Below are positions 112 through 9,947 of a stretch of DNA of 13,075 bases, one piece after another; the first letter of the stretch is position 1; each line of letters opens with the position of its first letter. The DNA comes from Candidatus Desantisbacteria bacterium (GTDB taxonomy: Bacteria; JACRDZ01). Both the position numbers and the translations under genes were made by a program. The notes under the pieces were generated by a model that saw nothing but the letters and a program-made list of their open reading frames with translations, did no database searches and was not told the DNA's origin. The stretch spans positions 1 through 13,075 of the forward strand of contig JACQWU010000157.1 of NCBI GenBank assembly GCA_016209155.1. Reading direction: 5' to 3'.

Positions 112-219
112 ATGACTCGTAATGAAGTAATAGAACACTTAAAAAAATTCAAAGAAGAAAACAAAGATAAATATCACCATTCCAAAATATTTAAGGATAA
201 CTTATGGACTGGGCAATAA
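112..219 (+). CDS. Hypothetical 35-aa upstream small ORF (MTRNEVIEHLKKFKEENKDKYHHSKIFKDNLWTGQ). Overlaps the start of the large target gene in another frame.
   Basis: ATG at 112, preceded by a strong Shine-Dalgarno at 88-99. The TAA at 217-219 overlaps ATG 204 of the big ORF (ATGgactgggcaaTAA), an arrangement compatible with translational coupling. No homology recognised. Confidence 0.22.
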   Translation: MTRNEVIEHLKKFKEENKDKYHHSKIFKDNLWTGQ

Positions 220-3200
220 TAAATAAAATTCAAATTAAATTACAAGAACATAAAGATTCTCGTGTAAAAGAACTTCCACAGGGGGATATTAATGTTTTAG
301 TTATGAGCAACCTTTTAGCCCCGCATATTAATGCCAGTGAATTTGATATTCGGTTCATTGCTTCGGGTGCTTCCGGTGCCGGAGTTCTTTTAATAGTCAC
401 CGATGAAAAAGTTCCAATTATTATCAAATATGGGAAAAAAGAAATTGTTGATAGGGAAAAAGAAAATTATACTCTGAAAGTAAAAGAGTTTATTCAATCT
501 GAAATTATCCCAACCTTGAAAGATAGCTACATGACACTTGGTGAATATGCATCCATAGCATATATCTGGGGCGGCGGGTGGAATGAAGCCGGGAAATTTC
601 GTGATTACTTTAAGCATGAGGAATCCAGCAAAAAAATAAATGAACAAATCAGTTCTTTAATGGACGGGCTTTTTAAATGGTACAGACTTAAAAGAGGAAC
701 AATGATTCCTATTGACCAGTGGCAATGGAATCCCTCCAATGCTCTTGTCTCTGTTGAAAACAAAATCAAAGCCTGGGACAGCAATGATGGTGCTAAGAAA
801 AATTTAATTGCAGCAATTAGAAATCAGGAAAAATGGAGAAACGCAATAAGGATTGCAAACTTCAGCCAGGGTTTTTGTCATGGTGATTTGAACTGTAATA
901 ATATTATAATTTCTCAGAATAGTATTCCATTTCCAAAAATAATTGATTTTGCAAGTGTACGTGAAGGAATTACCCCTGCCAAGGACTGGGCAAAGTTTGA
1001 AAGGGAAATTAAATTCAGGTTTCTGCGGGATATCACATTGGATTCAACTGCATTTAGAAAAATGGTTAAACGAGTTGACGAAGTCTGTAATTCATTGAAT
1101 ACAACTGATGTTGATAACTCTATAAAAAAGCCATGCTATTTAATAACTTTTATAAGAAAAAAGTATTCGGAAAAAGTCAGTTCATTTTCTGATGCCCCAT
1201 ATCTTGAATATCTCTTTTATCTTTTCTATATAACACTATCATATATTATCCACCCGGAAATAAAAGATGATCTGGAAATACAAAACACAGTAATTGATTC
1301 TGCATACAGGACATTAGAAGAGATTGAAAAGTTATTCCCATACAAATATAAAAATTATACTTATCCCGGAATTTTGATTACAGAAGAAGAACCTTCTCCT
1401 AAAACTTATAAAAAAGATATTATTGATTTGCCAATAAAATTAGAAATTCCTGATAGTTATCAAAAATGGGTGGTTGATCGTTGTGAGGAAATCAATATAG
1501 AAAAATTAGTGGAAAGCAAAGACAGCGAAATTCTTTTAAGTGTAAAAATGCCGCAGATTTTTGTTCCTTTATATACCAATTCACTGGAAAACAAAACCAA
1601 TGAAGAAAAAGAGATCGAGCGTCATGAAATAGAAAAAAAACAGGAGTTGGTTAATATTGAAAAATTATCGGCGGAGAATGAATATTTAGTTATAAAAGGG
1701 CAGGCGGGTTCAGGTAAGACCACTTTATTAAAACATCTGGCTTATACTATAGCTAAAAAAATAAATCCGGATGGATTAAATGATTACCTGCCAGTACTAA
1801 TATTTTTAAATGATTTAAAGAAGGTTTCCAATTTGTCTGATAATAACATTGCCGGTACACCAAAAGCTGAAGAATTATTAACCGGTTACTTTGAAAAAAA
1901 CTGTCCCTCTCTGACTCTGGATATAATAAAAAGATTTTGCCGTGAAGGTAAAGCTATTTTTATATTTGACGGGCTGGATGAAATTAATACGGAAATAAGA
2001 AAAATCGTAGTTACTTCTTTTTCTGATTTTAGAACAAATAATAATTATCCAAAAATAGTATTGGCAGGAAGGCCGCACGGTATAGACACAAATGATAATA
2101 ATGTCTTATGTAAATTCCCCAATAAGTGCATTGAGATTAATACTTTAAATAATGAACAGATTAAAGATTTTGTAAAAAAATGGTTTTTATACGATTCTAA
2201 ACTGCAAAAAGAAGGCAAAACACCTGAGGGGATGATGTGTGAAATTACAGCTCATGAACGAGTTAAGGAACTGGTTATCAATCCACTGATGCTGACTGCT
2301 GTTTGTATTTTGTATCATTATGACCGAAAACTTCCGGAGCAGCGTGTTGAGTTGTATGAAAGGTTTATAAGCAATCTGATTTTTAAGAGATTTGATAATC
2401 CGCTAAAAATAGTAGAATTTTTAATGAGACTGGCTTTCAAAGTTCATACTGAAAAAACGAAAGAAGGAAGAGAGAGAGAAAGAAAATTTGATAACGCATT
2501 AGCCATCAAAGTAATGGAAGAAGTTTATCAGAAAGAAAAAGATGAAACCGATGTTGCATACAGGCAGAGGCTTGAGAGGCAATTTAAGAATATTGAACAA
2601 AATTGCGGACTGCTTGAAGTCAGCAATGATAAACAGTACAGGTTCTGGCATTTAAGTTTTCAGGAGTTTTTAAGTGCAAGGGATATTCAATCCCGGAATA
2701 TGAATTATGACAGGGCAATTGAAGAGTACTGGGATGATGACTGGTATGATGAAGTCATTAAGCTGCTTATAGGATATCTGGCTTTTAGCAGTAACAAGAA
2801 ATGGGCAAATACTATTGTTGAAAGCGAATTAAAAAATAAAGAAAATAATGTTTTCCCATTCAGGCGGATGTTGTTAGCCGCAGATGCGCTTAATGATATT
2901 CATAAAGATATGAGAGATAATAAGGTGCTTAAACTTGCTCAGGATTGTTTAAAGGATATTTGGGGAAAAGGGAATGATCCGAAAATATGGGTAAATGCGG
3001 GTGAAACCCTGGGCTGGTTGGGGGATACCAGAAACCTTAAAGAATTTATTCCTATTGAAGGTGGTGAATATAACTTTAAAGATTTGGGTGTTAAAAATAT
3101 AAAACCATTTGAAATAAGCAAATATCCGGTAACCAATCAATGGTTTGAAAAATTTATTAAAGCAAATGGATATGAAAATATGAATTATTGGAGTGAAGAA

Positions 3201-3695
3201 GGTAAAAAGTGGCTGAATCAACTAAAAGCCAAATACCCTCTATATTGGCACGAACGAAAATGGAAATGCCCAAATGCTCCAGTGGTTGGAGTATGCTGGT
3301 ATGAAGCGAATGCTTTCTGCCGATGGTTAAAACAAGGTTATAGATTGCCCACTGAACAAGAATGGCAAGCAACTGCCGCTGGGCTAAAAAACAGAATATA
3401 TCCATGGGGAAATGAGTTGCAAGATAATAGCTGTAATACTTATGAAACTAAAATTGGAAGAATTTCACCTGTGGGAATTTTTGCTAAAGGTTGCACTCCT
3501 CTTGGTGTAGCTGATATGGCTGGTAATGTGTGGGAATGGACTGACAGTTGGTTTGATGAAAGTAAAAATAGCAAGGTGCTTCGCGGGGGTTCATGGAACC
3601 TCAATCAGGAGCTCGCCCGATGCGCTAACCGTTACAGGAGCAATCCGGTGAACCGTGACAACAATCTCGGTTTTCGTTGTGCCAGGACTTTGTAG
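204..3695 (+). CDS. DGR target protein 1. N-terminal protein-kinase-like (APH/ChoK-type) domain, NACHT STAND NTPase, C-terminal FGE-sulfatase (SUMF1) / C-type-lectin-fold domain bearing the variable repeat.
   Basis: ATG 204 with AAGGA 6 nt upstream. Kinase motifs: G-rich loop GASGAGV, IIIKYG lysine, HGDLNCNNIII catalytic loop, IDF (DFG-like). NACHT: Walker A GQAGSGKTTLL, Walker B IFIFDGLDEI, GRPH sensor. C-terminus YRLPTEQEW...GNVWEWTDSW...RGGSW...GFRCARTL is a typical FGE-sulfatase fold. The last ~37 codons are the VR. Confidence 0.9.
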   Translation: MDWAIINKIQIKLQEHKDSRVKELPQGDINVLVMSNLLAPHINASEFDIRFIASGASGAGVLLIVTDEKVPIIIKYGKKEIVDREKENYTLKVKEFIQSEIIPTLKDSYMTLGEYASIAYIWGGGWNEAGKFRDYFKHEESSKKINEQISSLMDGLFKWYRLKRGTMIPIDQWQWNPSNALVSVENKIKAWDSNDGAKKNLIAAIRNQEKWRNAIRIANFSQGFCHGDLNCNNIIISQNSIPFPKIIDFASVREGITPAKDWAKFEREIKFRFLRDITLDSTAFRKMVKRVDEVCNSLNTTDVDNSIKKPCYLITFIRKKYSEKVSSFSDAPYLEYLFYLFYITLSYIIHPEIKDDLEIQNTVIDSAYRTLEEIEKLFPYKYKNYTYPGILITEEEPSPKTYKKDIIDLPIKLEIPDSYQKWVVDRCEEINIEKLVESKDSEILLSVKMPQIFVPLYTNSLENKTNEEKEIERHEIEKKQELVNIEKLSAENEYLVIKGQAGSGKTTLLKHLAYTIAKKINPDGLNDYLPVLIFLNDLKKVSNLSDNNIAGTPKAEELLTGYFEKNCPSLTLDIIKRFCREGKAIFIFDGLDEINTEIRKIVVTSFSDFRTNNNYPKIVLAGRPHGIDTNDNNVLCKFPNKCIEINTLNNEQIKDFVKKWFLYDSKLQKEGKTPEGMMCEITAHERVKELVINPLMLTAVCILYHYDRKLPEQRVELYERFISNLIFKRFDNPLKIVEFLMRLAFKVHTEKTKEGRERERKFDNALAIKVMEEVYQKEKDETDVAYRQRLERQFKNIEQNCGLLEVSNDKQYRFWHLSFQEFLSARDIQSRNMNYDRAIEEYWDDDWYDEVIKLLIGYLAFSSNKKWANTIVESELKNKENNVFPFRRMLLAADALNDIHKDMRDNKVLKLAQDCLKDIWGKGNDPKIWVNAGETLGWLGDTRNLKEFIPIEGGEYNFKDLGVKNIKPFEISKYPVTNQWFEKFIKANGYENMNYWSEEGKKWLNQLKAKYPLYWHERKWKCPNAPVVGVCWYEANAFCRWLKQGYRLPTEQEWQATAAGLKNRIYPWGNELQDNSCNTYETKIGRISPVGIFAKGCTPLGVADMAGNVWEWTDSWFDESKNSKVLRGGSWNLNQELARCANRYRSNPVNRDNNLGFRCARTL
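3575..3685 (+). repeat. DGR variable repeat VR1 (111 bp). Matches TR except for 9 substitutions, all at TR adenines.
   Basis: Aligned by eye to 5160-5270. Changes are AA>CT (x2), A>T, A>G, A>T, A>G, A>C. They map to first/second positions of TR AAC/AAT codons and to one GAG codon in the target frame. Confidence 0.92.
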
Positions 3696-3724
3696 CTCTT
3701 TGCACTTTTACGCTTTTACCCTTT

Positions 3725-3740
3725 ACCGCCGTTAGGCGGT
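3725..3740 (+). promoter_or_regulatory. GC hairpin ACCGCC-GTTA-GGCGGT, 40 nt downstream of VR1. Candidate DGR homing hairpin/cruciform; it may also terminate the target transcript.
   Basis: 6-bp GC stem with a 4-nt loop, located within the ~75-bp post-VR extension that is conserved after both VRs but absent after TR. Such a GC hairpin 3' of the VR is needed for efficient homing in the Bordetella phage BPP-1 DGR. Confidence 0.55.
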
Positions 3741-3766
3741 CGAAATTTTAAAAATTAGGAGATACA

Positions 3767-4114
3767 TTGCCTAAAGAAGTTGATGCTATTACAAAACTTT
3801 ATGATTTTATTCTTTGGATAATCCCGAAGCTGGAAAAATTTCCACGCAGTCAGAAATTTTTACTGGCGGACAGAATTGAAAATTTTTTACTCGATATTCT
3901 TGAACTTTTGATTGAAGCGTCTTATTCCAAAAATAAATCCAATCAACTCAAAAATGCAAATTTGAAACTTGAACAACTGCGTTATTTAATAAGATTATCC
4001 AAGGACCTTAAATTACTTGATTTAAAAAGTTATGAATTTTCTGCTCAGACAATTAATAATATTGGCATTTCTATTGGAGGTTGGTTAAAATATACAAATC
4101 ATGAAAACATATAA
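3767..4114 (+). CDS. avd: Accessory variability determinant (Avd), a four-helix-bundle DGR accessory protein
   Basis: 115 aa, TTG start at 3767 with AGGAG 5 nt upstream. Basic helical protein with KLYD...ELLIEASYSKNKSNQLKN, resembling BPP-1 Avd (KCYD...VAGKSNQVSKL). Sits between the VR and the RT, and its TAA overlaps the RT start (4101-4114). Confidence 0.85.
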   Translation: MPKEVDAITKLYDFILWIIPKLEKFPRSQKFLLADRIENFLLDILELLIEASYSKNKSNQLKNANLKLEQLRYLIRLSKDLKLLDLKSYEFSAQTINNIGISIGGWLKYTNHENI

Positions 4115-5213
4115 CAATCTATTTGATAAAATAATTTCATTTTCTAACCTTCTTCTCGCTTCCCAAAAAACGCAAAAAGGCAAGCGTTTTAAAGATGGAA
4201 TTGCTTTGTTTAATTTGAATCTGGAAAAGGAATTGATTAAACTGCAAAAAGAATTACAGGAAATGACTTATCATCATGGTGAATACCGTGATTTTTTTGT
4301 TTACGATCCAAAAAGACGGTTAATCAGCGCTGCTCCATACCGGGATCGAGTGGTTCATCATGCTCTTTGTAATATTATTGAACCAATTTTTAATAAAGCA
4401 TTTATTTATGATTCATATGCTAACCGGAAGGAAAAAGGTACTCATGCCGCAATTAATAGATATACTGAATTTGCCGGAAAAAATAAATATGTTTTGCAAT
4501 GTGATATACAAAAATATTTTCAAAGCGTTAACCATGAAATACTTCTGGAGATTATTTCAAAAAAGATTACATGCGTAAAAACACTCTGGCTTATTAGAGA
4601 AATCATCAATACACGATGCGATGAAAATTATTTCTTTTACTTTGAAAATGACGACCTTTTCAGCCCGTTTGAAAAAAAGAAAGGAATTCCTATAGGTAAT
4701 TTAACAAGCCAATTTTTTGCCAATGTTTATCTAAATGGTTTTGATCATTTCATAAAAGAAACGATTAAATGTCCATACATTCGCTATGTCGATGATTTTG
4801 TTGTATTCGGCAATGATAAAGAACAATTGCATGAAGTAAAAAATCAAATGGATATTTATCTTGCTTCATTACGTTTAAAACTTCACGAGAGAAAATGCAG
4901 AATATATCAAATCAAAGATGGACTTAACTTTCTTGGTTATAGAATATTTCCTGAGTATCGATTACTTAAGAAAGATAATATATTACGAATGAAAAGAAAG
5001 CTTAAAAAATTAAGCCATCAATATAAACATGGCTCAATTTCTCTTGATAAAATTCATCAAAGTATTCAAAGTTGGATAGGCCATGCTTCCCATGCCGATA
5101 CTTACAATTTAAGATCAAAGCTATTGGGAAGTGTAGCTTTTCAAAGGGGTGCGACCAGAGGTGCTTCGCGGGGGTTCATGGAACAACAATCAGGAGAACG
5201 CCCGATGCGCTAA
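4101..5213 (+). CDS. DGR-type reverse transcriptase. The last 18 codons are encoded by the template repeat.
   Basis: RT motifs: [11 protein letters not shown] (motif 1/2), [28 protein letters not shown] (the [I/L]GxxxSQ motif 4 characteristic of DGR RTs), [12 protein letters not shown] (YxDD). TR begins at 5160, inside the 3' end of the ORF. Confidence 0.92.
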
Positions 5214-5270
5214 CCGTAACAGGAACAATCCGGAGAACCGTAACAACAATATCGGTTTTCGTTGTGCCAG
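5160..5270 (+). repeat. DGR template repeat (TR), 111 bp. In the target reading frame it carries 12 AAC/AAT (Asn) codons.
   Basis: This copy has adenine at every position where VR1 or VR2 differs, and it sits next to the RT. Homology to the VRs begins at GGTGCTTCGC and ends at GTGCCAG; TR then continues TACTAAAAAAG whereas both VRs continue GACTTTGTAG. Confidence 0.92.
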
Positions 5271-5274
5271 TACT

Positions 5275-5448
5275 AAAAAAGTTTGTTTTTGCCGGAGCCT
5301 TATCTTTTAAGAAAAGATAGGGGTGTGCATTTACTTAAGTCCAGGTCGCAATCCTGTGTTGGCTTATTTTAGCCAACCAAAATAAAAATAGCTCTATCCG
5401 GGGTTAGTAGGGAGACTGAAAACTCCGGGAGAGTATAAAGGAGAAAAA
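5275..5448 (+). ncRNA. Candidate DGR RNA spacer: a structured non-coding segment 3' of TR
   Basis: No ORF. Several hairpins are visible: CTTATCTTTT-aag-AAAAGATAG (5298-5322), GTTGGCT-tatttt-AGCCAAC (5358-5377), and CCGG...CCGG (5398-5430). In BPP-1 the spacer 3' of TR provides the priming site for cDNA synthesis. The role here is inferred only. Confidence 0.3.
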
Positions 5449-7301
5449 TTGGGAAAATTTAAAATTAAAATTTTAAGTGATAATCCGGAAGAAATAAAAG
5501 AAAACATTAAGTTTGATTTTCATGCTTATAAAAAAACATTTGTTGATATCATATCCTCAAATGATAATGAAACTCCGCTTGTAATAGGGCTTGAAGGCAG
5601 ATGGGGGAGAGGTAAAACCACATAGATATAAAAAAATTATGGGATAAACTTAATCTTAAGGCAATACCTGAATTTTTAGTAGACTATATTCCTTTTTTAA
5701 AAGGTTTTTCAAATATAATAAAAGAAGAAGATTATAAAAAAAACCTGCCGTATTTTAACCTTTTCAGCACATTTTTAAAACAATTAATCAGGCTTTGGAT
5801 TCATTGTGAAGATTCATTTAAAATAACTGATGGAGAAAGCATTGGGGTTGGAGAAATAGATGATAAAAAAGGTGTTGTGGTAATTTTTATTGACGACCTT
5901 GACAGGTGTAATAAAGAAAATATTGTAAAAGTTCTAGAAGCTGTGAAACTTTTTCTTGATTTTAGAGGATGTATTTTCGTAATGGGGGTTTCTATAGAAA
6001 TTATAGTAAAGGCTACTTCTTCTGTGGCTCATTGTGAAGATGGAAGTGAATACCTTGAAAAGATGATTCAGGTATCATACGGACTTCCACCAATTCACCA
6101 GGATGATATGAAAATTTATTTCGAAGAAAAAATTTCCCTATTTTCCTATAATGATATCTTAAATAAATACTCAGACGTAATTATAAAATCATTTGGAGAT
6201 AGGATTACTCCAAGAAAAATTAAGCAGTTCATTAATAATCTAAACCTGCAAATTAAGATATCAGATAATAAGGGTTTATTTGAAAAAGATTTTTATGATG
6301 AAAATAATAATAAAATAATTTTAAAAATTGATCATTATATATACTGGAATATTCTGAAAGAAGCATTTAGAATAAATTTTGATAGTATTAAAGATAATAC
6401 AGATATTATAAAAATGACACAAACCGCATATAAAGAAAATGAAGCTCAAATAAAAAATAGTAATTTTGAAAATATTGATAAAATCCGATACGAAGTTGTT
6501 AAGGATATACTAAAAAATCAAATGTTACGGGAGATAGTTATAAATTTACCTGATAATGCTGAGATTATAAATATATTAAAATTTGAATCTTTAGCAGTTG
6601 GTCAAATACATATAGAAACAGAAGATATGAAGGGAATGCGTGAGCATTATCGTAGTGGGGCAATGGTAAAAATTGAAAAAGGTCCGTTTTTATATACAGA
6701 GGAAAAAATTAAAGAAAAAATAGATTACGATTATGAAATAGATATATTCCCTGTTACAATTGAAGAATATTGCAAATTTATAGATATTAAGAAGCCGGAT
6801 AAAAAGGAATTAGATAATTGGATTTCTTTAGAAGGTAGGATTAAAGAGAAAGATGGAAAATATATTGTGGAAAAATGTTACGAGAAACATCCTATTATTT
6901 ATGTATCATGGTATGGTGCTAAGGAATATGCAAAATGGATGAAAAAAAGACTGCCCGAAGAAAAAGAATGGGAGAAAGCGGCAAGGGGACCAAATGGTTG
7001 GATATATCCATGGGGTGATGAGTTTGATAAAGGAAAATGCAATACCTCTGAATCCAATAATAATGATACAACTGAGGTAGACAAATATCCGAATGGAAAA
7101 AGTTATTATGGATGCTATGATATGGCAGGTAATGTCTGGGAGTGGACGGACAGTTGGTATGATAAAAATATGGATAGCAAGGTGCTTCGCGGGGGTTCAT
7201 GGTACTACGATCAGGAGTACGCCCGATGCGCTGACCGTGACAGGTACCTTCCGGAGTACCGTAACCTCGATATCGGTTTTCGTTGTGCCAGGACTTTGTA
7301 G
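5449..7301 (+). pseudogene. DGR target 2: KAP-family P-loop NTPase fused to a C-terminal FGE-sulfatase/CLec VR domain. Interrupted by a TAG and a -1 frame change immediately after the Walker A motif. The intact downstream ORF is 5616/5877..7301.
   Basis: TTG 5449 with AAGGAG upstream. Frame 1 gives LGKFKIKILSDNPEE...PLVIGLEGRWGRGKTT*, i.e. KAP Walker A GxWGxGKT, with stop at 5623-5625. Frame 0 is open from 5616 and continues ...VVIFIDDLDRC, the KAP Walker B DDLDRC. The C-terminus (...YGCYDMAGNVWEWTDSWYD...GFRCARTL) is paralogous to target 1. Confidence 0.7.
7181..7291 (+). repeat. DGR variable repeat VR2 (111 bp): 14 substitutions relative to TR, all at TR adenines
   Basis: By-eye alignment. 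AAC>TAC (x5), AAT>GAT (x2), AAC>GAC (x2), AAT>CTT, AAC>CTC. The flanks are identical to TR. Confidence 0.92.
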
Positions 7302-7330
7302 CTCTTTGCACTTTTATTCTTTTACCCTTT

Positions 7331-7346
7331 ACCGCCGTAAGGCGGT
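7331..7346 (+). promoter_or_regulatory. GC hairpin ACCGCC-GTAA-GGCGGT downstream of VR2, a paralogue of the VR1 hairpin
   Basis: Same stem and same distance from the VR as at 3725-3740. The surrounding ~75 bp (7292-7360) is about 90% identical to 3686-3760. Confidence 0.55.
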
Positions 7347-7419
7347 AAAAATTTTAAAATTTTTGATTATTAACTGATTTGGGAAATATATTCCAATGAA
7401 CTTTTATTCTAACTTCAAA

Positions 7420-7448
7420 TTGCCAATGAAGCGATAATAATATATAAT
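7420..7448 (+). promoter_or_regulatory. Candidate sigma70 promoter for fic: TTGCCA (7420-7425), 17 nt, TATAAT (7443-7448)
   Basis: Hexamers read directly. About 40 nt upstream of the likely fic start ATG 7490 (RBS AGGGTG at 7475-7480). Confidence 0.4.
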
Positions 7449-7489
7449 TGCATCAATATTTGAAGCGATTAAATAGGGTGAAAAATATT

Positions 7490-8443
7490 ATGACAAAATA
7501 TATATGGCAGAAAAAGGATTGGTATGATTTTAATTATGATCATAAAGCATTGATTGAATTACTTGCAAAAGCACGTCTTATGCAGGGAAATATGCTCGGG
7601 AAAATGTCATTGCTTGATATAAACCAGGAGATAGAAGCTCAGGCTGAAGTTCTTATTGAGGAAGCAGTAAGAACAGCAGAGATAGAAGGTATGTCATTAA
7701 ACAGAGATGCAGTAAGATCATCGGTAGCTATGCGTTTAGGGCTTCCGCATGGGGTAAACATAAAAGATAGAAATGCGGATGGACTTGTTGAGGTTTTGCT
7801 TGATGCAATACATTTTAATGAAAAACCACTTACGCAGGAAAGATTAAACGCCTGGCAGGCAGCGCTTTTCCCGACAGGATATTCAGGTCTAAAGAAAATA
7901 CGTACCGGAGAATTGCGGGGTCATGATCCAATGCGTGTAATATCAGGACCTATAGGTAAAGAAAAAATGCATTTTGAAGCACCGCCTGCGCAGCAGATTA
8001 AAAAAGAATTAAGCCATTTTATAAATTGGTGGAATGATTCATCGGATAAAATGGACGGTATGTTACGGGCTGCTGCCGCGCATCTGCGATTTATAACAAT
8101 ACACCCTTATGAGGATGGAAATGGAAGAATAGCGCGCGCACTGACAGATATGGCTCTTTCACAGGATTAAAAAATAAAAGTAAGATTTTATAGTGTTTCT
8201 TCACAAATCATGAAAAATCGGGAGGATTATTACAATATTCTTGAAAATATCCAGAACTGTCGTCTTGATGTCACTGAATGGTTTGTATGGTTTATAAAAT
8301 GTGTTATATCCGCGATAGAACATTCGCAAAATATTATTGCAAATGTGTTCAAAAAAGCTGAATTCTGGAAAAAACATGCACAAACACAATTAAATGAAAG
8401 ACAGAGAAAAGTGATAGCTAAACTTCTTGAAGCAGGTCCCTAA
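7490..8443 (+). pseudogene. fic: Fic/DOC family protein (N-terminal DUF4172-like region + Fic domain) containing an in-frame TAA at 8168-8170. The track splits it into 7448..8170 and 8210..8443.
   Basis: Fic active-site motif HPYEDGNGRIARAL. N-terminus MTKYIWQKKDWYDF. Both pieces share one frame and are separated only by the TAA (...ALSQD*KIKVRFYSVSSQIMKNREDYY...). The C-terminal piece has the usual winged-helix tail (NERQRKVIAKLLE). Confidence 0.6.
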
Positions 8444-8471
8444 AGCAAAATCAACTTCTTTGCTGTCTTTT
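8444..8471 (+). terminator. Candidate rho-independent terminator after fic: AGCAAA-(9 nt)-TTTGCT followed by GTCTTTTGTG
   Basis: 6-bp stem, T-rich tail, directly after the TAA at 8441-8443. The stem is AT-rich, so this is a weak call. Confidence 0.35.
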
Positions 8472-8541
8472 GTGCGCATATAGTGTAAGGATATATTCAT
8501 CCCTTTAGCATCATGCAAATATTGGATATGTTTAAGCAGGC

Positions 8542-8859
8542 TTACTGCAACAGTAAGGGCGAACCTACTCGTTTACGAAGCATTTCCAGTAAAAGACGGA
8601 TTGCCCTGATTTCACTTATACGACTAAAATCCATTACATCTTTACGCACAATATCCGTATAATATTGCTGGCGCCAGCGCTCGGCATACTCATCAGATAA
8701 GGAAAGAAATGGTTCAGGAAAACCGCCTAATCTATTTAATGCAGAAACTGCTTCGTAAGGTGGCAAGAGACCGGATAATTCCTTTACCGAAAGCGGATTT
8801 AAATGGAAAAGAAAATATCTGCCTGCAAGGGAATCTCCTGTTTGCCGAAAAGTATCCAA
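8542..8859 (-). pseudogene. Internal fragment of an AAA+ ATPase of the COG1373/DUF4143 type (gene remnant)
   Basis: 105-aa ORF with ...TGDSLAGRYFLFHLNPLSVKEL..., the conserved GR...L.PLSFxE segment of this family. It lacks the N-terminal P-loop and the C-terminal DUF4143, and is bounded by an in-frame stop immediately upstream of its TTG. Confidence 0.5.
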
Positions 8860-8876
8860 TTATTGCAAAATAGTCA

Positions 8877-8906
8877 AGACTAAAATGCATTTTGATGCAT
8901 TTTAGT
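8877..8906. repeat. Perfect 13-bp inverted repeat GACTAAAATGCAT-tttg-ATGCATTTTAGTC
   Basis: Read directly. It lies between the stop of the minus-strand 61-aa ORF (8902) and the ATPase remnant. It could be a transcription terminator for the minus-strand thrC-SPFH-lipoprotein operon, or a protein-binding palindrome. Confidence 0.5.
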
Positions 8907-9087
8907 CGTATTTTCTAAATTTAATTATTTCTTTTTCTCCTAAAAATTTAGGTTGTCTTTTAATTACATATAAATCAATTACAGTTTTAAACCTGGCAAA
9001 TATTTCTCTCAATCTAACTTTAGTTCCATAAATGTTTTTAACATCATCAGCACAATATCCGATTGCATCTTTCGATTTCCTCAGCAT
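8902..9087 (-). CDS. Hypothetical 61-aa ORF overlapping the lipoprotein ORF in the +1 frame. Possibly the C-terminal part of the same lipoprotein.
   Basis: MLRKSKDAIGYCADDVKNIYGTKVRLREIFARFKTVIDLYVIKRQPKFLGEKEIIKFRKYD. No recognised family. Overlaps 9047..9087. Confidence 0.3.
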   Translation of the reverse strand: MLRKSKDAIGYCADDVKNIYGTKVRLREIFARFKTVIDLYVIKRQPKFLGEKEIIKFRKYD

Positions 9088-9164
9088 TAAAGGACACTGA
9101 GGAGGAACAAGCAGAAAGAAAAATAGAAATAATTATGACTAATTTAAATTTTTTAAATTTCATA
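9047..9164 (-). CDS. Small lipoprotein N-terminal part (signal peptide with lipobox LSAC): MKFKKFKLVIIISIFLSACSSSVSFNAEEIERCNRILC
   Basis: ATG at 9164-9162, 16 nt downstream of the SPFH stop. Positively charged N-terminus, hydrophobic core and L-S-A-C lipobox. Ends after 38 aa. A +1-frame ORF (8902..9087) continues, so this is probably one frameshifted gene. Confidence 0.35.
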
Positions 9165-9179
9165 TTTGATTTATTAATG

Positions 9180-9947
9180 TTATGTATTAGTGATTTTTTT
9201 GCCTTCAACCTGCAAACTTTTAATAGTTTGAGCAAATTCTGTTGGTACTAAAATGATAAGACTATTCTGTTCAGAGCCAATCTCCTGCCAGGTCTGGAGC
9301 TGTCTTAAAATTAAAGCATTGGGGGATTCAGAGATAATTTTGGCAGCTTCTGTAAGCTTTTTGCTCGCCTCTTCTTCGGCAGACGCTTTGACAATTCGCG
9401 CTCTTTTTTCACGCATGGCTTCAGCCTCTTTTGCCATAGCGCGCTTCATATTGTCAGGTATTTCTATATTTTTAATTTCAACACTAATTATATTAATACC
9501 CCAGACATCCGTCGGGGACTGCAAAGCATCTAACACTTCTTTGCCAATTTGGTCTTTATTTGATAATAGGGTATCCAGATCATATTTTCCTAAAACATCT
9601 CTTAGTTTTGACTGCGCAAGTAAAGTGGAAGCCAGATTAAAATTATCAACTGCAATAATTGATTTTGCGGCATCGAATATTTTGTAATAAACAACTGCAT
9701 CTATTTTTATAGGGACAGAATCTTTAGTCATAATTTCCTGCGGAACAACGTCCATGGTTCGGACGCGCATATCAACAAGTTTTACATACTCAATTCCAGG
9801 GATGATTACATTAAAACCCGGATTAATTTCTCTATTCAACTTACCAAGACGGAAAACCACACCTTTTTGCCACTGGTCAACAATTCGAATACCCATAATT
9901 ACAATTATTACTGTAACTATAATTAATAAAATTAGTAAGCCTGACAT
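9180..9947 (-). CDS. SPFH/band-7 (stomatin/prohibitin-like) membrane protein
   Basis: N-terminal TM helix LLILLIIVTVIIVIMGI. Then VVFRLGK...PGIEYVKLVDMRV...IDAVVYYKI... typical of the SPFH domain, and a C-terminal coiled-coil rich in E/A/K. AAGGAG lies 6 nt before the ATG at 9947. Confidence 0.9.
   Translation of the reverse strand: MSGLLILLIIVTVIIVIMGIRIVDQWQKGVVFRLGKLNREINPGFNVIIPGIEYVKLVDMRVRTMDVVPQEIMTKDSVPIKIDAVVYYKIFDAAKSIIAVDNFNLASTLLAQSKLRDVLGKYDLDTLLSNKDQIGKEVLDALQSPTDVWGINIISVEIKNIEIPDNMKRAMAKEAEAMREKRARIVKASAEEEASKKLTEAAKIISESPNALILRQLQTWQEIGSEQNSLIILVPTEFAQTIKSLQVEGKKITNT

Follow-up and report, generated by a model that had tools for sequence, protein, structure and literature searches.

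The window analysed here, a stretch of 13,075 nucleotides from a contig of a Candidatus Desantisbacteria MAG, carries at positions 204-7346 what can be identified with high confidence as a chromosomal DGR cassette (avd-RT-TR type), with a target gene on either side of a template repeat (TR) and its reverse transcriptase (RT), and with a variable repeat (VR1, VR2) in each target. Pfam profiles locate RVT_1, bAvd, two FGE-sulfatase domains, NACHT and KAP_NTPase over the cassette, the features of which are as follows.

204-3695, + strand: target gene 1, 1163 aa; TCAD9-like, NACHT and FGE-sulfatase/C-type-lectin domains, with VR1
3575-3685, + strand: VR1; 9 differences from TR, all at TR adenines
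3686-3689, + strand: IMH-like end of VR1; G3686 (T5271 in TR), then common ACT
3693-3724, + strand: periodic array after VR1; pyrimidine-rich tandem of 7-8 nt period, from the target 1 stop codon
3725-3740, no strand: GC inverted repeat after VR1, ACCGCC-GTTA-GGCGGT, 39 nt from VR1
3767-4114, + strand: avd accessory gene, 115 aa, TTG start; Pfam bAvd PF22296
4101-5213, + strand: DGR reverse transcriptase, 370 aa; RVT_1 101 bits (Pfam)
5146-5156, + strand: 5' strand of the TR-bracketing duplex, GGGGUGCGACC; pairs with 5344-5354
5160-5270, + strand: TR; 32 adenines, 12 AAY codons in the target frame
5271-5282, + strand: TR tail; T5271 (IMH*-like difference), ACU, A-run
5298-5321, + strand: hairpin P1, CCUUAUCUUUU-AAG-AAAAGAUAGG; covariation
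5338-5354, + strand: AGUCCAG (5338-5344) and 3' strand of the bracketing duplex (5344-5354)
5358-5390, + strand: hairpin P3, GUUGGCU...AGCCAAC, then a conserved A-rich single strand
5391-5434, + strand: stem P4/P5, around an invariant GUA / GAA internal loop
5449-7301, + strand: target gene 2; KAP-family P-loop NTPase and FGE/C-type-lectin domain with VR2
7181-7291, + strand: VR2; 13 differences from TR, all at TR adenines
7299-7346, + strand: periodic array (7299-7330, nearly identical to that after VR1) and GC hairpin (7331-7346) after VR2

Genes of the cassette

The product of target gene 1 has an N-terminal kinase-fold, TCAD9-like domain (Pfam, 47.3 bits, cut-off 40), a central NACHT STAND NTPase (41.6 bits, cut-off 26.7) with the Walker A motif GQAGSGKTT, and a C-terminal FGE-sulfatase/C-type-lectin domain (Pfam, 3.7e-47, aa 964-1161). 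The avd product matches bAvd over profile positions 5-106 of 107 (74.6 bits), and the end of its gene overlaps the start of the RT gene by 14 nt. Within the RT, IGNLTSQ at aa 198-204 corresponds to [LIV]GxxxSQ, the signature of DGR RTs (PMC3575424), and the YVDD box that an earlier note on this DNA had described as apparently intact is found at aa 229-232; in a 20-sequence alignment the enzyme matches all 100+ invariant columns, both motifs included. Its final 18 codons are the TR in another frame, the TR overlapping the RT stop by 54 nt, and such overlap is the rule among the aligned relatives, whose C-terminal RT tails likewise correspond to TR sequence translated in the frame of the RT.

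The frame of target gene 2 is broken near 5620, past the Walker A motif GRGKTT, where a stop codon lies at 5623-5625 and the coding sequence continues in a different frame, leaving 5877-7301 as the longest intact ORF. Of the earlier claim that two proteins are diversified from one template, the part concerning two VR-bearing targets holds, but target 2 is interrupted in its KAP P-loop region in this assembly. The two may be one intact protein beside a pseudogene, unless the frameshift was introduced during assembly. Taken with an in-frame TAA stop in the Fic gene adjoining the cassette, it means that the locus may be decaying or that the assembly may have errors. That both lesions stem from errors of sequencing or assembly in a MAG contig, with both targets intact in the organism, is a tentative reading that falls somewhat short of an even chance: the break amounts to one missing base, with which ...ACC ACA T^AG ATA... 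would read GKTT-LDIKKLW, the conceptually joined protein outscores the single ORF against KAP_NTPase (98.1 versus 70.4 bits), and four loci (L141, L142, L145 and L146) have unbroken homologues of 644-703 aa at this position, whereas the break is outside any long homopolymer, and the linker between Walker A and Walker B, which is about 60 residues shorter here than in L145 and lacks the homologues' WFNPWxY-type motif, suggests true degeneration.

The template and its two variable repeats

The TR and VRs form islands of 52-58% GC in a cassette that elsewhere has 27-37%, and no third copy of the repeat is present within the 13,075-nt window. Base-by-base alignment of the 111-nt TR with VR1 gave 9 mismatches (TR positions 5185, 5186, 5197, 5198, 5218, 5225, 5234, 5242 and 5251), and with VR2 13 (5182, 5185, 5188, 5197, 5212, 5218, 5224, 5227, 5228, 5236, 5245, 5246 and 5248); the homology of VR1 spans 3574-3689, beginning one base before the repeat as delimited above (5159 in TR). 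The TR base is A at all 22 pooled differences, and every substitution is at codon position 1 or 2 of the target frame and non-synonymous. The hypergeometric probability that mismatches would be confined to A by chance comes to 5.6e-6 (VR1) and 1.2e-8 (VR2), jointly ~1.3e-12. The substitution sets of the two VRs are independent, with only 3 positions changed in both, the base differing between the VRs each time. Both VRs sit at the C-termini of their FGE-sulfatase/C-type-lectin domains, which share only 44% amino-acid identity between targets 1 and 2, and the 3' flanks of the VRs are near-identical for ~65 nt beyond the stop codon, with 4 differences between the two copies.

Much of this had been read from the letters alone in the earlier note, whose 9 VR1 mismatches, unlike substitution sets, 12 AAY codons, target-frame reading of the TR and two lists of substituted residues were reproduced exactly, and none of the non-adenine mismatches that it had named as counter-evidence was found. 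Its count of 14 for VR2 must be lowered to the 13 that lie between 7181 and 7291, the larger figure having included T5271->G, one base beyond.

The RNA 3' of the template and the ends of the variable repeats

A structured RNA of ~160 nt lies 3' of the TR, with 21 pairs for which 88.9% of cells are paired, compared with 33-50% when slid, and a covariation score of 0.816 versus <=0.27. The duplex that brackets the TR (85.5% of cells paired versus 39-53% slid, 32 loci) also appears in the MFE structure predicted for the window RNA. In relatives the TR tail pairs with the segment directly 5' of the invariant CCAG (90% in register versus 44-56% slid, 32 loci), whereas in the window this pairing is interrupted (ACU/AGU plus AAGU/ACUU), with 5/8 positions in the common register. 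Counterparts of both duplexes were described by Handa et al. (bioRxiv 10.1101/2023.10.23.563531), who also placed an Avd-binding stem-loop at the site equivalent to P1; by analogy, P1 probably binds Avd. The AGUCCAG segment is invariant in 28 sequences, and P3 is, on inspection, kept as a hairpin in relatives with differing sequences. The P4/P5 stem, of 13 + 2 pairs, has 90% of cells paired and compensatory changes in 12/13 pairs. This region is the part matched by the Rfam motifs RT-14, RT-17 and RT-18, every score being sub-threshold; the RT-14 match covers 5283-5434, the UAGUA...GAAA stem included, at 37.9 bits against a gathering score of 48.1, and the outer stem of RT-14 is missing from the window RNA. 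All three motifs are, like the window RNA, structured RNAs adjoining RT genes, and their authors speculated that RNAs of this type function in DGRs (Weinberg et al. 2017, PMC5737381).

Each VR is followed by an IMH-like G, where the TR has T, and further 3' by a GC hairpin. The T/G difference that had been placed at the last homologous base is real, but it is not the last position, as ACT (5272-5274) is identical after it. A difference of this type recurs among relatives, with AGGACT in the VR versus AG[T/C]ACT in the TR; in 32/93 TR/VR pairs the final mismatch at a non-A base has C/T in the TR versus G in the VR, AGGACT being the commonest VR context. In described DGRs, IMH and IMH* can be recognised as the ends of the repeats, past the mutagenised region, where TR and VR match imperfectly (Wu et al. 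2018, NAR, PMC5758913). The array after VR1 consists of the units TAGCTCTTTG CACTTTTA CGCTTTTA CCCTTTA, and its autocorrelation at lag 7/8 is 0.47/0.50, compared with 0.26 +/- 0.07 in control windows. The inverted repeat at 3725-3740 is a candidate DGR target hairpin or cruciform; its equivalent after VR2 has the loop GTAA and a stem extendable to 9 bp over 7328-7349.

Operation, condition and relatives of the element

With RT signature, bAvd, TR, two A-only VRs, IMH-like difference, hairpins and RNA all present, the description of the locus as a complete DGR is upheld. If the element works as that of the Bordetella phage does, an RNA of ~290 nt (about 5146-5434) would be transcribed, in which the 11-bp bracketing duplex would loop the TR, accompanied by the duplex of TR tail and spacer, the probable Avd-binding hairpin and the 3' GUA/GAA stem. 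RT-Avd would copy the TR into cDNA from near G5270, misincorporating opposite adenines, and the cDNA would be substituted into VR1 and/or VR2, with the G versus T at 5271, the downstream array and the hairpin telling the recipient VRs from the donor TR. The expected outcome is that residues encoded by as many as 12 AAY codons, plus a few more, vary on the ligand-binding face of a C-type lectin, whose fusion partner is a NACHT NTPase (target 1) or a KAP NTPase (target 2) in proteins proposed as intracellular conflict or defence sensors. Such diversification, which the earlier note took to be probably ongoing, may continue today.

Less probable, and on balance unlikely, is a real DGR that is now inactive, in which the VR differences are fossils of earlier retrohoming at a decaying locus. 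Full-length RT, Avd and target 1 genes, an RT with all family-invariant residues and RNA helices that are all intact in the window speak against it, and the lack of non-adenine changes in 111 nt of either VR, with few in the flanks, argues for recent homogenisation from the TR; on its side are the frameshifted KAP target, the stop in the Fic gene, an ATPase-like fragment at 8545-8859 and the interrupted TR-tail/spacer pairing, with precedents in Trichodesmium IMS101, whose RT is pseudogenised in culture (PMC4143802), and in the transposon-degraded DGR loci of PB-PSB1. Ordinary paralogy, with duplication of the lectin end, gene conversion and a coincidental A-bias, would account for the homology of the two C-terminal domains but deserves almost no credence, being effectively refuted by the adenine-only differences (P ~1e-12), by a middle copy that is non-coding in target-frame gene context and adjoins the RT and Avd genes, and by the same layout in ~90 loci.

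The DGR of the window is a member of a described class, and for that reason a good example and not a discovery. The closest relatives of its RT (65-72% identity) are from Desulfovibrionales, Poribacteria and other MAGs, in phyla other than that of the window, and their cassettes have the same five parts, [effector]-NACHT-FGE / bAvd / RT / TR / KAP-FGE; in the majority of ~90 related loci, Trichodesmium and Nostoc included, the TR immediately follows the 3' end of the RT gene or shares sequence with it. Dore et al. 2024 (PNAS, PMC10907252) described the cellular DGRs of clade 5D, which diversify STAND-NTPase "antigen sensors" and have a pair of C-type-lectin targets carrying NACHT or KAP NTPases. 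Common to that clade and the window are two targets, each with a single C-terminal C-type lectin and a central NTPase (in 5D NACHT/nSTAND1, some KAP), variable N-terminal effector-like domains, a chromosomal location and RT relatives in Trichodesmium, Nostoc, Thiomargarita and Chloroflexota, a likeness drawn from architecture and RT relatives. The window differs in its kinase-fold TCAD9-like N-terminus, in a KAP target interrupted in the assembly, and in its Candidatus Desantisbacteria MAG host, a phylum of which Dore et al. make no mention. Its gene order is that of Architecture B2 (avd, RT, TR, targets either side; Wu et al. 2018), with no substantive difference, the overlap between TR and RT stop given above being the rule among relatives of this RT; two-target cassettes made up 13% of that set.

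The RT of Trichodesmium erythraeum IMS101 (L056) is 45% identical to that of the window, and the two elements have in common a TR downstream of the RT, flanking VR genes on either side (Doulatov 2004; Pfreundt et al. 2014, PMC4143802), the 3' RNA element with AGUCCAG and GUA/GAA stem, and the periodic array and hairpin after the VRs. The Trichodesmium TR is a 265-nt RNA with its own promoter (PMC4143802), and unlike the window that genome has at least 12 target genes, with other domain architectures. BPP-1 resembles the window in adenine-specific transfer from TR to VR, a C-terminal VR in a C-type-lectin fold, Avd and RT, IMH/IMH*, a spacer RNA 3' of the TR, a TR-bracketing duplex and an Avd-binding hairpin (a candidate in the window), and differs in its avd-TR-RT order, its single phage tail-fibre target and the several positions, instead of one, that distinguish IMH from IMH*. 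It also has a counterpart of the post-VR GC hairpin, which in the passages of Guo et al. on BPP-1 and phage DGRs (PMC3240598) has a GRNA loop and lies 4-34 bp from the VR, a range slightly exceeded by the 39 nt of the window hairpins. Those passages make no mention of a periodic array, and no description of a 7-8-nt array after VRs was found in the literature; an array of this kind, between VR stop codon and hairpin, is common to the loci of the relatives.

Repeats, reverse transcriptase and accessory gene

The cassette reads in a single orientation, and its genes and repeats are arranged as follows.

204-3695, + strand: target 1 (1163 aa; domains from Pfam), with an N-terminal kinase-fold domain resembling TCAD9, then a NACHT NTPase and, at the C-terminus, an FGE-sulfatase/C-type-lectin domain that ends in the variable repeat VR1 (3575-3685)
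3767-4114, + strand: avd accessory gene (Pfam bAvd PF22296, 74.6 bits, nearly full length), overlapping the start of the RT gene
4101-5213, + strand: DGR reverse transcriptase (RT; RVT_1, 101 bits), with IGNLTSQ at aa 198-204 and YVDD at aa 229-232
5160-5270, + strand: template repeat (TR)
from 5449, + strand: target 2 (TTG start, AAAGGAG upstream; domains from Pfam), a KAP-family NTPase with a lectin domain ending in the variable repeat VR2 (7181-7291)

The region 5140-5290 was aligned to both proposed VRs and compared base by base. TR and VR1 differ at nine positions and TR and VR2 at 13, every one of them (9/9 and 13/13) a TR adenine, and no non-adenine position of 5160-5270 is mismatched in either comparison. 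With 32 A in the 111 nt of TR, confinement of all mismatches to A has a chance probability of 5.6e-6 (VR1), 1.2e-8 (VR2) and ~1e-12 (both together). The earlier note had counted nine and 14 differences, all at template A; the nine and the restriction to adenine are borne out, but the 14 should read 13, as it includes the T-to-G change at 5271, one base past the end of the repeat. That T/G difference, taken in the note for the IMH*/IMH distinction between TR and VR ends, is confirmed, but it is not the last homologous base: three more common bases (ACT) follow it, so that ungapped homology spans 5159-5274.

In the target frame, TR reads exactly as had been proposed, with 12 AAY codons, and 30 of its 32 adenines fall at codon positions 1 or 2. 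All VR substitutions are non-synonymous and all lie in codon position 1 or 2. Only three positions are mutated in both VRs, to a different base each time, and the two substitution sets, which had been described as different, are therefore independent.

The RT carries the [LIV]GxxxSQ motif that is the signature of DGR RTs (PMC3575424), matches every invariant column of a 20-member RT alignment, and has the intact YVDD box that had been claimed for it. TR overlaps the RT ORF over the final 54 nt of the latter. Related RTs end in a conserved '...GAxxRxVEQQ', which is their TR in the RT reading frame, and the TR/RT overlap is thus a lineage trait. Given the presence of A-only VRs, RT motifs, bAvd, an IMH-like end, hairpins and cis-RNA, the proposal of a complete DGR with one template and two VRs is supported, and there is little doubt that the cassette is bona fide and architecturally complete.

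Signals downstream of the variable repeats

The DNA from ~60 nt 5' of each VR to ~65 nt past the stop codon is 86% identical between the two targets, and across that stretch the differences within the VRs are nearly all A-site changes. Three features follow one another at its 3' end.

end of each VR, + strand: IMH-like end, an invariant 19-nt block with G in both VRs (T5271 in TR) and the common ACT, as seen by sequence comparison
3693-3724 and 7299-7330, + strand: pyrimidine-rich tandem array, period 7-8 nt, between the VR stop codon and the GC hairpin
3725-3740 and 7331-7346: GC-rich inverted repeats ACCGCC-GTTA/GTAA-GGCGGT, after VR1 and VR2, with none after TR

The IMH-like difference recurs among relatives, with AGGACT in the VR and AG[T/C]ACT in the TR (G in place of T or C) in 32/93 related TR/VR pairs. 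Guo et al. (PMC3240598) showed that efficient BPP-1 homing depends on a GC hairpin/cruciform 3' of the VR, and that similar hairpins follow the VRs of other DGRs. The window hairpin begins 39 nt past the VR, in contrast to the 4-34 bp given there for phage DGRs. A simple terminator scan did not flag the window hairpins because their T-runs are interrupted; the same hairpin with a clean T-run is found in many relatives, where it may also serve as a terminator.

The array in the window reads GCTCTTTG CACTTTTA CGCTTTTA CCCTTTA, with the unit RCYCTTTT present four times. It also occurs in the VR 3' flanks of related DGR loci identified by RT homology, including L011, L024, L044 and L056 (Trichodesmium), and the units of other sublineages include TTCTGA, CCTCTGT and TAACTATT. 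Autocorrelation at lags 7 and 8 is 0.45 and 0.42, respectively, compared to 0.26 +/- 0.07 in random windows, and lag 7 or 8 is the best lag in 74 of 88 VR flanks from RT relatives. The larger of the two values averages 0.48 in VR flanks and 0.31 downstream of other long ORFs, and 17% of VR flanks, but no TR flanks, exceed the 99th-percentile control value; these statistics overstate independence because the loci are related, yet the repeat units differ among sublineages.

Term searches within DGR papers, which covered part of that literature, found no description of such an array. The array might act in target recognition across this large cellular DGR lineage, as a cis-element not described before, a proposal that we regard as improbable at present. 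Such an element could be a repeated docking site for a pentameric Avd-RT-RNA particle or, alternatively, a strand-opening tract that would expose the IMH for cDNA priming. If the array is a recognition element, it would account for the discrimination of VRs from TR despite a single-base IMH/IMH* difference.

A structured RNA around the template repeat

Immediately 3' of TR, at 5283-5443, are sub-threshold Rfam matches to RT-14, RT-18 and RT-17. The RT-14 match (RF02921) scores 37.9 bits (E = 0.029 for the whole window), below the gathering threshold of 48.1 bits, and no match in the window attains the gathering score of its Rfam family; the RNA resembles RT-14 and is not filed as a member. Motifs of the RT-14/17/18 type adjoin RT genes, and some have been guessed to serve DGRs (Weinberg et al., PMC5737381). 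An alignment of the TR 3' flanks of 27 related loci and the window has the invariant elements AGUCCAG, GUA and GAA, and its RNAalifold consensus has 21 pairs, with compensatory changes in 20. Cells are paired at 88.9% in register versus 33-50% with the partner slid, and the covariation score is 0.816 versus at most 0.27 in controls, with none of 500 shuffles reaching the observed values.

Two long-range duplexes are predicted in addition. An 11-bp bracketing duplex, 5146-5156 with 5344-5354, would close TR into a loop, and the 8 nt immediately preceding CCAG would pair with the TR tail, a duplex that is interrupted in the window. Over 32 loci, the bracketing duplex is paired at 85.5% versus 39-53% slid, and the tail duplex at 90% in relatives versus 44-56% slid, both counts being biased upward by the choice of upstream strands for maximal pairing in a short window. 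Based on the slid and shuffled-partner controls and on the constant register, we argue that the long-range signal is real, and the bracketing duplex is independently predicted by the MFE fold of the window. Its 5' strand lies within the RT coding sequence, in the codons around QRGATR, and this stretch is therefore under constraint at the protein and the RNA level alike.

The cis-RNA elements of the window correspond to the spacer, Avd-binding stem-loop and 'cPRT Stop' duplex, elements resolved in the BPP-1 ribonucleoprotein and predicted in 207 other DGRs (Handa et al., bioRxiv 10.1101/2023.10.23.563531). A TR RNA of ~290 nt would be expected, in line with the 265 nt of the Trichodesmium TR transcript (PMC4143802). 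A different pairing, in which UACU (5271-5274) and AGUA (5406-5409) of the 3' stem form a priming duplex that positions the priming adenosine, was rejected because the TR base (T or C) shows no covariation with the A/G of the motif in relatives; the TR-tail partner supported instead of AGUA is the 8 nt 5' of the invariant CCAG.

Within the conserved 3' stem, at 5404-5422, the invariant GUA and GAA lie on opposite strands and flank a small variable hairpin, an element that is the core common to Rfam RT-14, RT-17 and RT-18. It looks like a candidate sarcin-ricin/loop-E-type internal loop. In the close relative L145 (8178-8330), an insertion of ~130 nt separates the end of TR from the start of the conserved RNA element, showing that TR tail and spacer are separable by extra sequence.

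Target proteins, relatives and genomic setting

In both targets the VR is the 3' end of the target ORF, in a C-type-lectin (FGE-sulfatase-like) fold, and the FGE-sulfatase domains extend to the final residues of both ORFs. The lectin domains of the two targets have only 44% amino-acid identity. The frame of target 2 is lost directly after Walker A (GRGKTT), where it runs into a stop (5623-5625); a different frame then carries the ORF on. Adding a single missing base would bring back GKTT-LDIKKLW, and the joined pieces match KAP_NTPase at 98 bits, up from 70. Relative to the intact L145 homologue, the linker between Walker A and Walker B lacks ~60 residues. The KAP gene is either a real pseudogene or the product of an assembly error. 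That the window DGR as a whole is now quiescent or decaying seems rather unlikely.

The RT belongs to a very large family, with at least 8000 significant matches (all scored candidates). The window RT protein, 100% identical to an NCBI protein of Candidatus Desantisbacteria, is present once in a 15-billion-protein collection, and an exact-product look-up found no other contigs with an identical RT product. A metagenome scan returned distant relatives only, at no more than 61% identity, and the closest loci come from individual homologue look-ups. The nearest RT relatives, at 65-72% identity, are from Desulfovibrionales, Poribacteria and MAGs. Of the four closest loci inspected in full, three have the same cassette of NACHT-FGE, bAvd, RT, TR and KAP-FGE, with an HD domain or none recognised at the N-terminus of NACHT-FGE and an intact KAP-FGE of 660-703 aa. 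The fourth, L143 from Poribacteria, has a Metallophos-NACHT-FGE target without the KAP gene. The genomic neighbourhood is different at each of the four.

The N-terminal domain of target 1 varies among cassettes that are syntenic in other respects (HD-CE, Metallophos or none recognised among the related loci L141, L143, L145 and L146, and TCAD9-like in the window). Sequence comparison suggests that effector domains have been swapped while the sensor/DGR chassis stayed constant. The occurrence of the five-part cassette in distant phyla, with an exchangeable effector domain at the N-terminus, fits a hypervariable-sensor module that spreads ready-made by horizontal transfer. The flanking genes in the window are chromosomal, namely those for threonine synthase, an SPFH protein and alpha-glucan phosphorylase. 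The GC content of the cassette is host-like, at 27-37%, and only TR and the VRs are GC-rich, at 52-58%.

Fusion of FGE-like targets to kinases or NACHT NTPases was described by Schillinger and Zingler as early as 2012. Targets of DGR clade 5D come in twos, both having a single lectin domain at the C-terminus and, centrally, an NTPase of the NACHT, nSTAND or KAP kind, and have been proposed to be hypervariable antigen sensors of conflict systems (Dore et al. 2024, PMC10907252). The window fits this clade 5/5D layout, with NACHT and FGE in target 1 and KAP_NTPase and FGE in target 2. The retrieved RT relatives are from clade 5 taxa (cyanobacteria, Thiomargarita and Chloroflexota among them) and the closest loci have a 5D-type cassette, a likeness in taxa and in cassette. 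Hosts are multicellular or aggregate-forming in 82% of clade 5/5D (Roux 2021; Dore 2024); the window is from a MAG of an uncultured Candidatus Desantisbacteria. In Wu et al. 2018 (PMC5758913), the order avd-RT-TR is architecture B2, and two targets are found in 13% of DGRs. The window DGR stands apart in its host phylum, in the TCAD9-like domain at the N-terminus of target 1 and in the interruption of target 2; the main survey of this DGR class makes no mention of Desantisbacteria. The window DGR is a clean, fully annotated example, from a candidate phylum, of an element that diversifies NTPase sensors of the NACHT and KAP types. The locus brings no new test of the adaptive-immunity question for such sensors, and its covariation-supported map of TR-flanking RNA, together with the post-VR array, is useful for reconstituting a cellular DGR.

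Directly downstream of the DGR is a Fic/DUF4172 gene (7448-8440) with an in-frame TAA at 8168-8170, past which the same frame runs on as Fic-like sequence (KIKVRFYSVSSQI...) to 8440. The stop may mean that the gene is a pseudogene or that the assembly is wrong here; recoding is much less likely. The only PADLOC matches in the window were generic ones to the RT, PifA/QatA-like ones to the KAP domain and a SoFic-like one to the Fic gene, and there is no tRNA or tmRNA in the window. Between the Fic and SPFH genes are two short ORFs.

8545-8859, - strand: short ORF without a Pfam match, resembling a fragment of an ATPase-associated protein
8905-9132, - strand: short ORF without a Pfam match

The region 8440-9180 looks like gene debris.
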